This document shows, one piece after another, positions 21,157 through 62,321 of a DNA stretch of 64,000 nt. The stretch's first letter is position 1; each line of letters starts with the position of its first letter. The notes under the pieces were generated by a model. It was not told the origin of the DNA and searched no databases. It saw only the letters and a program-made list of their open reading frames with translations. Origin of the DNA: Dictyostelium discoideum (lineage: Eukaryota); contig CM000150.2 of assembly GCA_000004695.1 (NCBI GenBank), positions 4,608,001-4,672,000 on the forward strand, given 5' to 3'. The position numbers and the translations under genes were made by a program.

Positions 21157-21763
21157 CTTTTATAAGAGTAACGTAGACGCTAAATTGTTCATTGTGTGTT
21201 ATTTATCAATTATCAATTATCAAAAATCAATCATTTATATATAATAATAATAATAATTTTGATTAATATTCATTCTATTATTTGATTATTTAAATTTTCT
21301 CACAGATTGACCAATATAAACTAAAATTCATTCCACTATTGATAATATGCATAGAATATGGATATGTGATATGTGATATAGATACCGTACATTTTAAAAT
21401 TCTTGACAAAAGAAAGAAAAAAAAAAAAAATTTTCAATTTGCGCGAATTTTTTTTTTTCATTTTTTTTTTTTTTCCCAATTTTTTTTTTAATTTTTTTTT
21501 TTTGATTACGTTTTAAACTTTTGGAAAATATGGCCGACAAAACAAGAAATTTTATGTGGTTGGCAAAAGATAAAAATAAATATATTAAAGAATATCAAAG
21601 AATTTTTAAATTTTAAATGATTCAAAATATAAAAAAAATATGTTCACACAAAAAAAAAAAAAAATAAATATTTTTACACAAAAAAAAAAAAAAAAAAAAA
21701 AAGATTGATAAAAAATTATCACTTTTTTTTTTTTTTACTATTTTCTTTTTTTTTTTTATTTAT

Positions 21764-41118: not shown

Positions 41119-41482
41119 AATTTTGTTAAATAAAAATTAAATAAATAAAAAAAAAAAAAAAATAATAAAAAAAGATATTCTTTTTTTTTTTTTTAAGAAA
41201 AATATCTGAATATTGGTGACTGTGTTTTTAAGGGAGTCATATATTGAAAAAAAGTAAAAATAAAAAACTGACCAATGCCACATAAAATTACTTTTCACCT
41301 TTTGGTTTCAGTTTTTTTTTTTTTTAATTTTTTTTTTTATTTTTTTTATTTTTACAATTTTGATCAAAAAAAAATCTTTTTTTTTTTTTTTTTCTTAATT
41401 TTTTATTTTTACTCCCACCATAAAAAAAAAAAACAATCAAAAAAACAAATATTTTCAAAGTTATATAAAAAAAATTATAAAA

Positions 41483-44828: not shown

Positions 44829-45941
44829 TTATATACATAATAGAGATACTGAATTCATATCAGGAACACAATTTCCAGTTGATTGATCACAGTAGTGATT
44901 TCTACAAATTAATCCTATAAGAATAATGTCCACAACTTTTTTTGGTGGGCATGTAATATTTGTATGTGTACAACCATTTAGACCACATTGATCTATAGTG
45001 CATTTCTTTCCATCATTACAATTTGAATTATTCAATGTGAATTGGCAACCAGTGGAGGGATTACAGGTGTCATCAGAACATGGATTTCCATCTTCGCAAA
45101 CTATTGGAACTGGTAATGAACAACCATCTTCAGTACATGTACTATTTACACATTTATTACCATTTGTACAAATAGTATCATTTAATATTGAACCACATCC
45201 AAATAAGGGATGACAAAAATCTTCTGAACATGGGTTATCATCATCACAATCGACCTCTTGTTGAACACATCCATTGTCGGTACATATACCTTCGGAACAT
45301 GCACTTAGTGAATCACAATTCCAATCGTTTTTTTGTGAAACACATCCGTTTTTAAAATCGCAATAATCATCTGTGCATGGATTACCATCATTGCAATTAT
45401 CTTCTACGTATTTACAGCCAAACTCTCCACATACTCCACTTAGGACACAAGTAGAGAAGTTACTTGCTTTATTTGAACAAATGGTATCATTGGAAAAGTG
45501 GATGCATTCTCCAAGTATTGGGTCACAATAGTCGTTGGTACATTCATTATCATCATGGCAATCAATTTCATCGTATTCACAAATACCAGTTTCTCTATTA
45601 CAACCTAATGGAATTTGACATGGGTTTGGTGCTGGACAATTTACTTTTGGTATAGCAACACAACCACTTTGAGTATCACATAGAAACATATCACATAAAT
45701 TTTCTGGTGGGCATAATGAATTATTTGGAGTATTTTTAACACCATATCTATCACTACATGTGTCGACTGTACAATCAACTTCATCATCTAAATCTATTGT
45801 TTCATATAAACATGTTGAATTTCTGCAACCTATAAATGAATAACAATTTCTATTTTCAACGCAATAAGTTTCTCCACAATACTCTGAACAACAAAGTTTT
45901 ATAGCAAATAATAAAAATACTACAATATATAATAATTTCAT
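44829..45941 (-). CDS. secreted cysteine-rich protein with Dictyostelium CTDC-type repeats
   Basis: 370-aa ORF with a signal peptide (MKLLYIVVFLLFAIKLCCS) and about 12 repeats of a C-x-D/E-G-N-P-C-T/S-x-D-x-C...GC module (for example NCNDGNPCTDDYCDFKNGC, CEDGNPCSDDTCNPSTGC). This matches the Dictyostelium 'slime mold repeat' (Dicty_CTDC) found in extracellular-matrix proteins. Confidence 0.65.
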   Translation of the reverse strand: MKLLYIVVFLLFAIKLCCSEYCGETYCVENRNCYSFIGCRNSTCLYETIDLDDEVDCTVDTCSDRYGVKNTPNNSLCPPENLCDMFLCDTQSGCVAIPKVNCPAPNPCQIPLGCNRETGICEYDEIDCHDDNECTNDYCDPILGECIHFSNDTICSNKASNFSTCVLSGVCGEFGCKYVEDNCNDGNPCTDDYCDFKNGCVSQKNDWNCDSLSACSEGICTDNGCVQQEVDCDDDNPCSEDFCHPLFGCGSILNDTICTNGNKCVNSTCTEDGCSLPVPIVCEDGNPCSDDTCNPSTGCQFTLNNSNCNDGKKCTIDQCGLNGCTHTNITCPPKKVVDIILIGLICRNHYCDQSTGNCVPDMNSVSLLCI

Positions 45942-46028
45942 ATTATTTAAAATTAGATTTAATTATTATAATAAATTAAATAGAATGTAGTTTGTTTATT
46001 TAAAAAAAGAATTTAAAAAAAAAAAAAA

Positions 46029-46062
<34 letters not shown>

Positions 46063-46260
46063 GATTTTGGTTACCGAAAAAAGTTTGATTTAAATAAACG
46101 GTTAATTTTATTATGTAATTTTGAAATAAAATTTATGACGAAAAAAAAAAAAAAGGAAAGAAATCTGGTTTGGAGATTTTTAGCTTGTGGGCCAATCTAA
46201 AAAAAAAAAAAATAATCTTGAATTAAAAATCATTGAACGGGGCTAATCAAATTAATATTT

Positions 46261-46292
<32 letters not shown>

Positions 46293-46440
46293 CCCAAAGA
46301 TATTGATTTTTAAAATATTAGACCCAATAAATTTAAAATTTTTCAGTTTTTATCTTTAGAAATGGAGTGATGAAAAAATTTTTTTTTTTTTTTTTTTTTT
46401 TAATTTAATTTTTAATTAATTTAAATTGAGAATCGTAAAA

Positions 46441-46590
46441 TTTATTGGGCAACTTTTAAAAAAAAACAAAATGTTTGGGCAACTTTTTAAAAAATTTATT
46501 GGGCAACTTGATCCTAAAAAACAAAATTTATTGGGCAACTTTTTAAAAAAAACAAAATGTTTGGTCCTTTAAAATATTATGGGTCAATTA
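46441..46590 (+). promoter_or_regulatory. cluster of 4-6 copies of a TTGGGCAACTT(TT) motif 150-300 bp upstream of the 46733 gene
   Basis: The motif occurs as tttattgggcaactttt (46441), tgtttgggcaacttttt (46473), tttattgggcaacttg (46495) and tttattgggcaacttttt (46528), with degenerate copies tgtttggtcc and attatgggtcaatt. Related GGGCCAATC and GGGGCTAATC sequences occur at 46190 and 46238. These are GC-containing boxes in an otherwise greater-than-90% AT promoter. Confidence 0.4.
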
Positions 46591-46732
46591 ATTCACAAAA
46601 ATCATTATTTTAAAGCAAAGGAAAATTTCAGGTAATACTATTTAAACTTAATAGTTTTTTTTTTAAAATTTTAAATACATTATATTTTTTTTTTAAAAAA
46701 AAAAAAATTTAATCACTATCGATTTTATCAAA

Positions 46733-47617
46733 ATGAAAAAAGTTATCTTTTTATCTTTAATTGTTTTTTTATGTTTATTACTTTTACCTTCAAATGATGC
46801 TCATATAGTAAATGATCCCACATTACCAGATTATATTGGTTTGGTTAGAGGTGGTAAGATTTATTTCTTTTAATTAAAATTGAAATTTTAATTTTAAAAA
46901 AACTAATTATATTTCATTTTAGGAATTTGTAGTATTCCAGTTTATGGTGCAGCCATAGATTCTTGTTTATATTTTGTATTCAATTTGGTATGTATTATTA
47001 AATTATTAAATTATGATAAAAAAGCTTTAAAATATTAATTTTAAAATCTAGTTTTATCCAAAACAACCAGAAGAACCAAAAGTAACGTAAGTAAAACACT
47101 TTTTATAAAAATAAAAGATATATATTGTAAATATATTTACAAATAATTTTAAAATTTAATTTAATTTAGAATGAAAGAGTTTAACGAAAGGTTGGAATTT
47201 ATTGCAAAAGATATGAAAACCTATACCAATAAAGTCATTAATGCAAGTGTTCTTCAAACATGCAGATATCAATTTAAAACTTTGAAAAAATCTTCAGATA
47301 ATTATATGGATATGCTCAATATATGGAAAAAAGAATTTGGTGCAACTGGTTTAACTACAGAAGAAACTAAAAACAATTTACCACCAGTGTTTTATGTTTT
47401 TTTAAGTAAATTGGAAGATTGTTTAATACAATTTTCAGATCCAACTCGTATTAGCCTCTTAGCCAAATTGTATATTGATACTGCAGTAATATACTCAGCA
47501 CTACTCCGTGATGCTAATTATAATGGAATTTCAATGGGTTTACATCCAGGAATTGTAAATGGAACAAACAAAGATATAATATTTAGTGCTAAAATTCGAT
47601 TACATTCACTTGATGTA

Positions 47618-47698
<81 letters not shown>

Positions 47699-48612
47699 CT
47701 AATTCTTTATTATGATTACATGTTAAATAGGTGTTTTCAAATTATATGATTATTTTACCACAAATATTAATTCAAAATGATAATAGATGTAGAACAAATT
47801 CAAATGGAAATTGGCGTTGTGAAGATAAATTTCCAGTACCAGATTGGAGCGGAACTATTTCACTATTCTTGTACTCAGATGTTACAAGATATGACCGTGA
47901 GGTAGTTTATAAACCAACCTCGACATCCTCAACAGGTGAAAGAATCAGTTGGGAACGTGGAGATAATACACAGAAAGGTGATAGTGGAACAATTATTATT
48001 CGTGACTTTGCAGATGTTGGTAGAAATATTAAAAAAGGTGTAGTTTGGACGTTGCCTTATGAAAGACCTCAACAATCTTTTGATTTTTTAACAGGATGCT
48101 ATGGAATTTACGTTCAATCTTATCCCTATAGAAAGTATGTTTCAGATGATGCTGTTGATATAACTTTTGTTGAGACTGAAAATCAACCAAATTATGATAT
48201 AGCCTTCATTCAAAGCTTTTTGTTATCCAAGCCAAACAATCAAGTTAAAATCAGAATTTATTATTCATATCACTTAAATAAAACCTATGAATATATACCA
48301 AATAACTTTCAACTAAAAGTAATAAAAACAAACTCAAATGGATATGAACTTAATAAAATTAGAAGAATTCTTGCCTCTGGATCTGATGACCTTTATTATT
48401 TAAATAAAACATACAGTTTTCATACTCAAGGATCAAGTAAAAACTTGGTTACTCGTTTAACATTCCATCAAAATAGAAGTTATCAATTGTATGATAGATT
48501 TGTATTTGAAACTCCAAAATTTGATGTAGGAAAGGATTTCTCTGTAATTCTATTACCAATCTCAAGATTTTCAATCCATTTATTTTCTATAGAAGTTATA
48601 TCTGATAAATAA
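46733..48612 (+). CDS. hypothetical secreted protein (5 exons); parent of the decayed copies at 50.5-51.2 kb
   Basis: Exons 46733..46853 (signal peptide), 46923..46987, 47052..47086, 47170..47614, 47731..48612. Donors are GTAAGA, GTATGT, GTAAGT, GTAAGT. Intron 4 is GTAAGT plus about 78 T plus a short acceptor region. The track ORFs 47171.. and 47731.. are the exon 4/5 bodies. No homologs were recognised. Confidence 0.55.
47621..47698. repeat. roughly 78-nt poly(T) homopolymer making up most of intron 4 of the 46733..48612 gene
   Basis: The intron is GTAAGT followed by an uninterrupted T run and then ctaattctttattatgattacatgttaaatag. Confidence 0.9.
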
Positions 48613-50181: not shown

Positions 50182-50535
50182 GAGTTAAATCAAATTAGCC
50201 ATGATAAATCAAATTAAATAATTTTTAAAAAAATTATTAATAAAGTTTTTTTTAACTAAAGTTTTTATAAAAAAAAATATGTATATTCTTTATAAAATAT
50301 TTTCTTGTTTTTAAATACTGCACTTCTTTGTGATGGTTATTTCAATGGATTTTAATGGTTTTACATAAATCATAAATAAATGAAACAATATCAGATGAAA
50401 TGACTTTTTCAACAAAACTATAACTACATTCAAAAGAGGTATTTTCTAACTATATGTATATTTTGTCAAGGTTTAATGTGGCTGCTGAAATTAATATTGT
50501 AATTCTAGCAGACATAAGTCCATATTAATTTTGGC

Positions 50536-60924: not shown

Positions 60925-61473
60925 AGACCACAATCAAAAGATTTGTTGTTCTACTTTGCCAAATGATGTTTTTTTTTATTTTTATTTTATTTTTTTTTTT
61001 TAGAAATTTTGACTTTAATAAAGATTAAAAAAAAAAAAAAAATTGCAAAGATACTGTTGTAAATACTGCTACCCAAAAAATTCGTTTTTTTTTTTTTACT
61101 TTTAAAATTTTATTCCCATTTGCTGAAACCTTTTGGTTTTAAACGAAAGACACAACGAGATCAACACAATCACGGTTTTTATTTTTACTCTAATTTTTAT
61201 TTTTATTTTTTTTTATTTTCATTTTTTTTTTTTTTTTTTTATCGTCTGGGATGATTGGGCGAATTTTTATTTTTAACTACAACACGAGAAATTTTTTTTT
61301 TTTTTTTAAATAATTTCAAGGAAGTGGTGGAAAATTAAATTTGATTGGGTCATTTTTTATTCTATTTTTAAAATTTTTAATCACACCATTAATTAAATTT
61401 TAAATTAATTAATTAATTAAAAAACCGTTTACCCAGGTAATTTTTACTAATTTCTGTTTTTGCACAAAACACA

Positions 61474-61709: not shown

Positions 61710-61758
<49 letters not shown>

Positions 61759-62321
61759 GATGATGGGCAATCGTGAGAAGAATCTAAAAAAAAACTTTTT
61801 TCCCACCCAATAAAAATCTTTTTATCGTTTTTGTGAACCAATGAGCTATCAGTTTTTTACTTGAAAATGGATTTTTTTTTTCTTTTTTTTTTAATTTTGA
61901 GTTATTTTTTCAGTCGAATCATTTGATGATTTTTTTTTTTCACTTTTTTTTTTTTTTTTCAATTTTGATTAAAAATCAAAAATCAATTATCATAATCCAT
62001 TTTTTATTAAATTATTATAATTTTATTAAATTTTTTTTTGTTTGTCCCAATATCAAAAAAAAAAAAAAAATTAAAAAATAAAAAATAAAAAATAAAATTA
62101 AATATTGGTAATAACACCTTAAACACAATAATTTGTAAAATAAAATAAAAGATAAATAAATAAAATTTTAAATAAATAAAAAAATAAATAATTAAATTAT
62201 TAAATAAATAAAATAAAATAAAATAAAATAAAATAAATTAAAATAAAATAAAATAAAATAAAATAAAATAAAAACAAAAATAAATAAAATATATAAATTT
62301 AATAAAATAAAATAAATAAAA

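Follow-up and report, generated by a model that had tools for sequence, protein, structure and literature searches.

Lineage-specific tandem duplication as the very probable origin of iterated GC-cored boxes in the promoter of DDB_G0270330 of Dictyostelium discoideum

Minisatellites of unstable copy number are known from promoters, both in yeast and upstream of the human insulin gene, where the repeat is a VNTR. Developmental promoters of Dictyostelium carry homotypic repeats of short elements, namely G-box/CAE repeats (GBF) and TTGA repeats (STAT proteins), while bidirectional promoters are the classic setting of the CCAAT box. Here we compare with these systems a cluster of GC-cored boxes upstream of DDB_G0270330, a gene on chromosome 1 of D. 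discoideum AX4, within a stretch of 64 kb that was analysed as a whole (hereafter the window; G+C ~22%). The cluster consists of head-to-tail units of a few tens of bp inside a promoter, its copy number varies among close relatives and slippage or unequal exchange would account for its origin, in all of which it resembles the promoter minisatellites; by analogy with them it could alter expression through the number or the spacing of sites. It differs from them in that the difference in copy number was seen between lineages diverged by ~11% at the DNA level and not within one population. With the homotypic clusters of Dictyostelium it shares the presence of several copies of one short GC-containing element within a few hundred bp of very A/T-rich upstream DNA, but the units, when read directly, match none of the known sites that the initial annotation had named for comparison (GBF G-box, Myb, GATA and CAE). 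The units contain neither a G/T-rich GTGTGGG or CACCC run nor a TTGA dyad or a GATA, and the CAACTT of the array departs from the Myb site, YAACKG, at its last base. Moreover, the Dictyostelium clusters recur across many co-regulated promoters and across species, whereas the box described here occurs at one locus in one lineage group.

The five-exon model of DDB_G0270330 (Table 1) gives a protein 100% identical to the database sequence, and the ATG at 46733 is the annotated start. The protein is uncharacterised and its N-terminus, MKKVIFLSLIVFLCLLLLPSNDA, looks like a signal peptide. In one source it is named "pesticidal crystal protein"-like, a name that our searches did not confirm; a Pfam search placed it in no family, a search of PDB sequences returned no meaningful match and a literature search found no paper on the gene. 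Homologues (9 matches) were confined to a few recent Dictyostelium assemblies. The AlphaFold model, built on an alignment of 8 sequences, was poor (mean pLDDT 41.5), and in this poor model the N-terminal half is helical and the C-terminal half rich in beta structure. Intron 4 is for the most part an unbroken run of 79 T (47620-47698). The protein of the neighbouring gene has Dicty_CTDC repeats and a hydrophobic N-terminus. The two genes diverge from an intergenic region of 791 bp (45942-46732; 16% G+C), in which CTATTTAAAC with the T run that follows it is likely to be the core promoter or TATA box of DDB_G0270330, judging by the usual layout of Dictyostelium promoters; on that assignment, the array would lie ~100-230 bp upstream of the transcription start. 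The divergent promoter also contains long homopolymers, A46 (46015-46060), A26 (46267-46292) and T23 (46379-46401), whose lengths vary among the relatives.

The initial annotation had described four near-perfect copies of a box 150-300 bp upstream of the ATG. Both points were borne out, the copies being four exact plus-strand occurrences of TTGGGCAACTT within 97 bp, 192-288 bp upstream of the ATG, and the only exact ones in the 64 kb. Four identical 11-mers in 97 bp are far above the expectation for independent chance, and it was from such improbability, in a region said to be above 90% A+T, that transcription-factor sites had been proposed. The A+T content was measured as 81% in the interval concerned (46180-46590) and 84% in the whole intergenic region, and the argument from improbability falls away, since the boxes are not independent and their repetition is fully explained by tandem duplication. 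Each array unit reads AAAAT(T/G)T(A/T), then TTGGGCAACTT, then an A-rich spacer. Tandem Repeats Finder (TRF) described the array (46437-46558) with a period of 56 (2.1 copies, score 179) and with a period of 32 (2.2 copies), and there is a higher-order period of ~56/86 bp; the direct-repeat families D2 and D3 likewise support the array. The A/T flanks were duplicated along with the core, a 42-nt stretch being 98% identical between 46437 and 46523. Box copy 1 is preceded by AAATTTA and has GCCCAATAAATTT as its reverse complement; copy 2 lacks ATTGG/CCAAT because of the AAAATGT that precedes it; and the GATCCTAAAAAA after copy 3 resembles the GATCCCTTAAAAA of one-copy relatives. Start-to-start spacings are 30, 24 and 32 bp, within the 22-33 bp first reported, but at 2.86, 2.29 and 3.05 helical turns there is no consistent helical phasing of the boxes. 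The core is identical in 4/4 units while the flanks differ (Fisher p ~4e-5). We rejected this contrast as evidence of selection, since it is circular, the core having been defined as the invariant part, and since most of the flank differences are duplication junctions and differences in homopolymer length.

Table 1. Features of the DDB_G0270330 locus, in window coordinates (L002, L003 and L004 are loci of related genomes described in the text)
Feature	Position	Strand	Remarks
DDB_G0270330	46733-48612	+	five-exon model, 515 aa
DDB_G0270330 exons	46733-46853, 46923-46987, 47052-47086, 47170-47614, 47731-48612	+	
Dicty_CTDC gene, divergent neighbour	44829-45941	-	370 aa, cysteine-rich
Upstream box GGGCCAATC at 46189, within GTGGGCCAATCTA	46186-46198	+	contains CCAAT; unit 1 of second repeat
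Upstream box GGGGCTAATC at 46240, within CGGGGCTAATCAAATT	46237-46252	+	last unit of second repeat; CCAAT changed to CTAAT
Inverted box CCCAATAAATTT	46323-46334	+	exact inverted copy of the 12-mer AAATTTATTGGG
Tandem array (minisatellite)	46437-46558	+	24-32-bp head-to-tail units
Box copy 1, TTGGGCAACTT	46445-46455	+	orthologue of the single L003/L004 box
Box copy 2, TTGGGCAACTT	46475-46485	+	preceded by AAAATGT
Box copy 3, TTGGGCAACTT	46499-46509	+	followed by GATCCTAAAAAA
Box copy 4, TTGGGCAACTT	46531-46541	+	
Weaker box TTTGGTCCTTT	46560-46570	+	orthologous to GATGATCCCTT of L003 and L004
Weaker box TATGGGTCAATT	46578-46589	+	orthologous to TTAAGGGTAAATT in L004 and ATTGGGGTTTAGAT in L002; deleted in L003
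Candidate core promoter of DDB_G0270330	46638-46665	+	CTATTTAAAC, then T run

The history of the array was read from homologous loci, L001 to L008, compared with the window. The locus L002 is from D. cf. discoideum, L003 and L004 are both labelled D. discoideum, L005 is from D. citrinum and L007 from D. dimigraforme. L002, L003 and L004 are syntenic with AX4 and each shows ~88-90% DNA identity to it in the flanks. At the orthologous site there are four copies of the box in AX4 and in L001, one each in L003 and L004, and none in L002. As L001 differs from the window by 3 gaps and 0 base substitutions over 6.4 kb, it supplies no independent evidence and says nothing about fixation of the array within the species. 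In the three-way alignment with AX4, both L003 and L004 have a single AAATTTATTGGGCAACTTTT at the orthologous place, their unit reading CGTAA(AA)TTTATTGGGCAACTTTTAAAAAATCAAAAGAT... or, at greater length, CGTAA(AA)TTTATTGGGCAACTTTTAAAAAATCAAAAGATTTTTTAAAAAAAAAACAAAATGATGATCCCTTAAAAA, and the ~88 extra bp of AX4 hold three further copies of the unit. The one-copy strains are represented by the assemblies GCA_054859385.1 and GCA_054859355.1. L002 has kept the TCAAAAGAT spacer of the one-copy state and has AATTGAATAATTT at the position of the box. The single copy of L003 and L004, together with the lack of a copy beside a one-copy spacer in L002, indicates that the one-copy or zero-copy state is ancestral, and thus that the array arose by expansion in the AX4 lineage. 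The homologous genes of D. dimigraforme, D. citrinum and L006 have promoters that lack any GGGCAAC box, and in the paralogous pair of L008 the whole array segment is deleted together with exon 1.

These comparisons make it very probable that the array originated by lineage-specific tandem duplication, and we consider it probable that it is a young minisatellite of the AX4 lineage, grown from one copy to four. A stretch of ~30 bp of the promoter common to the CTDC gene and DDB_G0270330, AAATTTATTGGGCAACTTTT with its A-rich spacer, was present once in the ancestor shared with the closest relatives and was amplified to four head-to-tail copies, with a gain of ~88 bp, presumably in at least two rounds of replication slippage or of unequal exchange involving the A/T-rich flanks. 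The GC-rich cores are identical because they descend from one another and not because of four independent selections. The mechanism is routine in this DNA, since a TRF scan of the whole window returned tandem duplications by the dozen in intergenic sequence, with periods of 20-70 bp, some with GC-containing cores (21624-21698, period 30, ...ATATGTTCACACAAAA; 41319-41431, period 57, ...ACAACCACCAT). Other indels of at least 10 bp also occur within the 791 bp among AX4, L003 and L004.

The alternative closest to the initial proposal is that TTGGGCAACTT is a transcription-factor binding site of which four copies have been kept by selection for the expression of DDB_G0270330. The proposal of a homotypic cluster held in so far as identical elements stand at a position typical of promoters (190-290 bp upstream of the ATG), and further points in its favour are the number of copies of one motif near a promoter (4 in 97 bp, where three or more would count), the invariance of the core in 4/4 copies, a partial copy in inverted orientation at 46323-46334 and the retention of the single copy in two relatives, L003 and L004. 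Copy number, however, is not conserved between relatives, the box is absent from the promoters of L002, D. dimigraforme, D. citrinum and L006, no other promoter of the window carries the motif, nor does it recur elsewhere in the 64 kb, the boxes lack helical phasing, and the literature search found no record of either motif or gene. The maintenance of four copies by selection is therefore doubtful, and repetition alone does not show a selected set of transcription-factor sites. A distinct question is whether the single ancestral box is a functional factor site. In L003 and L004 the box is well preserved together with ~50 bp of surrounding sequence, in a region where G/C positions are conserved at ~0.66-0.71 against these two loci; at a conservation of ~0.7, keeping all five G/C positions of the box has a probability of ~0.17, and they were kept in 2/3 equally distant relatives. 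We regard a functional single box as a tentative possibility on this comparison of sequences; the retention of the box, the inverted 12-mer and the invariance of the core each weigh little in its favour. Beyond these relatives, the promoter of AX4 has no GC-containing 7- or 8-mer in common with those of D. dimigraforme, D. citrinum and L006 except ACCCATAA, which is discussed below.

Two degenerate copies had also been counted with the four. Sequences of this kind are present in AX4 (TTTGGTCCTTT and TATGGGTCAATT, Table 1), but they are older than the array: their orthologues occur in the one-copy genomes, and they thus represent earlier sequence bordering the array, not decayed repeats. Related boxes noted at 46190-46245 are likewise present, as GGGCCAATC and GGGGCTAATC, but belong to a second, older tandem repeat with the consensus CTTRTGGGSCCAATSAAATTAATTTTTTAATTAATTA, units of which read (AAAAATCATTAAA)CTTRTGGGSCCAATSAAATTAATTTTTTAATTAATTA in the relatives. 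This repeat has two units in AX4 but three in each of L003, L004 and the paralogous L008; a ~90-bp unit of the upstream repeat is present in L003 and L004 and not in AX4. The likeness of these upstream boxes to the boxes of the array is limited to GGGC.AA. The promoter between the CTDC gene and DDB_G0270330 thus holds two separate repeats, both of lineage-variable copy number. The inverted box CCCAATAAATTT, 103 bp upstream of the box, repeats exactly, in inverted orientation, the 12-mer AAATTTATTGGG with which array units 1, 3 and 4 begin. It is retained as CCCCAATAAATTT in L003 and as GCCCCAATAAATCT in L008 and is altered to CCCTAATAAATTT in L004, and an inverted 12-mer of such a kind appeared in 3.8% of Markov simulations.

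On the other strand, box units 1, 3 and 4 read GTTGCCCAATAAATTT, which contains CCAAT, and this raises the possibility that the ATTGG at the left edge of the boxes, with the CCAAT at 46192 and 46324, forms an NF-Y/HAP (CCAAT-box) cluster of a bidirectional promoter. The pentamer is found in both orientations, in 3/4 array units (1, 3 and 4, as ATTGG), in the inverted box at 46323 and in one upstream box, at 46189. Among the upstream boxes of L003, L004 and L008, GGGCCAATCA and AGCCAATGA fit the metazoan consensus, RRCCAATSR; a minus-strand TTGCCAATGA (TCATTGGCAA on the plus strand) lies ~115 bp upstream of the homologous ATG in D. dimigraforme; and CCAATAA fits CCAATNA, the yeast HAP form. Against this, there are 5 CCAAT in the 791 bp, or 3 if the array is collapsed, with ~1.5-2.7 expected, a near-chance density in that at least 5 occur in 19% of windows of this size. 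Copy 2 of the array reads CCAAA (TTTGG) instead, and several upstream units are broken (CTAAT, CAAAT, CCAAC). The flanks of the array boxes, which read GCCCAATAA, misfit the metazoan consensus, which requires S (C or G) directly after CCAAT, the fit to RRCCAATSR being confined to the upstream boxes (GGCCAATCT; GGCCAATCA in L003 and L004), and the invariant GGGCAACTT part of the box is left unexplained. A search of the literature on CCAAT promoters in Dictyostelium found nothing relevant. Taken together, these points make a CCAAT-box cluster quite improbable.

The box can also be compared with the palindrome of C/EBP-type bZIP proteins, ATTGCGCAAT. The plus-strand sequence ATTGGGCAAC matches it at 8/10 positions and shows the half-site symmetry TTG..CAA, but its central step is GG where the palindrome has CG, and its last base differs. 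We know of no Dictyostelium bZIP protein with this specificity. A role of the box as a CCAAT-like or C/EBP-like regulatory site is possible from its sequence, while the binding of any one named class of factor is improbable.

A different reading of the region starts from its minus strand. The DUSE, the Dictyostelium upstream sequence element of ncRNA genes with the consensus [AT]CCCA[AT]AA (PMC3188802, PMC7919456), shares with this locus a C-rich core that leads into A-rich sequence (CCCA.AA), and the consensus has one exact match here, ACCCATAA on the minus strand at 46577-46584. The GC-cored units could accordingly be envisaged as small non-coding RNA genes or as elements of DUSE type, with minus-strand transcription downstream of ACCCATAA (46584-46577). 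Some ~60 nt downstream on that strand, AAGTTGCCCAA is faintly like the start of a Class I RNA (AAG + GTTGA), and ACCCATAA is the sole GC-containing 8-mer common to the promoters of AX4 and D. dimigraforme. In D. dimigraforme, however, the match differs in both position and orientation, and a rough calculation gives ~6 chance matches per 64 kb for an 8-mer of such composition. No ncRNA was found ~60 nt downstream: Rfam gave no match in the whole window at gathering thresholds and none in 45900-46800 at E values up to 10, ARAGORN found no tRNA, and CCTTACAGCAA, the motif conserved in Class I RNAs, is missing. Folding of the array gave no signal above shuffled controls for either strand (z of -0.22 and +1.28), T runs within the units would stop Pol III, and the array units themselves read GCCCAATA, a misfit to [AT]CCCA[AT]AA. 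The match at 46577-46584 therefore looks like a chance match, and an RNA gene or DUSE-type promoter is highly improbable.

Retroelements do lie near the locus in some genomes. L001 diverges from the window after position 50199 with an LTR-like end (TGTTGTAGGGAATTTTCC...), which is followed by an integrase-domain gene (L001 6430-7843); here two D. discoideum assemblies that are otherwise identical differ by the insertion of a retroelement. An origin of the boxes from a mobile element or dispersed repeat, a fragment of which was inserted into the promoter, can be considered in this light. The 11-mer, however, is found nowhere else in the window or in the compared loci except at the orthologous site, the alignment shows that the extra DNA of AX4 consists of copies of the local unit alone, and no terminal repeats or target-site duplication were seen, so that such an insertion is extremely improbable.

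Beyond the array, the motif shows no sign of wider use. The initial annotation had called for a genome-wide check of motif enrichment; on the 64-kb window, such a check showed no enrichment outside the array. With up to two mismatches allowed, TTGGGCAACTT has 20 matches in the 64 kb against 18.8 expected, and the 16 matches with one or two mismatches fit the shuffle expectation for this window. There are 33 matches to ATTGGG (32 expected), 7 to TTATTGGG (4.4 expected) and 9 to TGGGCRA (4.6 expected, the matches falling to 6 when the array is collapsed to one). Similar TGGGCRA cores had been reported near 61250 and 61755 and linked to the promoter of the Rap-like gene. Such cores do exist, at 61256 and 61764, but the 7-mer occurs at chance frequency, and the proposed link, which rests on that 7-mer, cannot be upheld. 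Both sites read GGATGAT(T)GGGC after a long T run and resemble one another more than they resemble the array. They lie in GC islands, GGATGATTGGGCGA (61249-61262) and GGATGATGGGCAAT (61758-61771), each preceded by a long T run, in the ~1.5-kb intergenic region that lies upstream of the Rap-like GTPase gene and separates it from a deacetylase-like gene; a good CCAAT box, GAACCAATGAG, lies at ~61836 and CACCCAATAAAA at ~61804. In the literature on Dictyostelium we found no record of the motif, whether as GGGCAAC, TTGGGCAA, TTGCCCAA or GCCCAAT, the returns being primer sequences or unrelated. A scan for promoters and terminators of bacterial type, irrelevant for a eukaryote, gave counts at chance level and was set aside.

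The two genes that share the intergenic region recur together. A head-to-head pair of a CTDC gene on the minus strand and a DDB_G0270330-like gene on the plus strand is found as a unit in the window (44829-48612), in L007 (8336-11941), in L008 (1213-7966) and in L006 (1192-5039), where the upstream gene shows 67-69% identity when aligned with the CTDC gene. In D. dimigraforme (L007) the pair adjoins a further tandem DDB_G0270330-like gene, and L008 is a second copy of the pair within the genome of D. cf. discoideum. In that copy the GCCCCAATAAATCT box runs almost straight into exon 2 (ATGGTGCAGCCATTGATTC...; L008 2760-2860), the core promoter also being deleted, and the DDB_G0270330-like gene is probably truncated or dead. 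The recurrence of the unit suggests that the genes form a conserved, co-duplicated pair with a common promoter. Should a factor bind the box, its amplification would raise occupancy at the promoter of DDB_G0270330, and possibly also at that of the divergent CTDC gene. We can sketch, as a speculative and rather unlikely extension of the duplication reading, that ATTGGGCAAC is the site of an uncharacterised Dictyostelium factor, perhaps of bZIP or CCAAT-binding type, and that its fourfold amplification in the lineage of D. discoideum sensu stricto rewired the expression of both genes.

The array carries a caution for genomes of this kind. Those that are A/T-rich and prone to repeats readily yield iterated GC-cored boxes in promoters by local tandem duplication, and iterated boxes that lack comparative or genome-wide support are not evidence for selected factor sites. 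If the box does bind a factor, the four-copy and one-copy relatives would constitute a natural experiment on the effect of site number on expression, modest and specific to this locus. Rewiring, if true, would have affected a toxin-like, lineage-restricted secreted protein, and the locus would then provide a natural example, from a social amoeba, of a promoter that evolved through the expansion of a tandem repeat.
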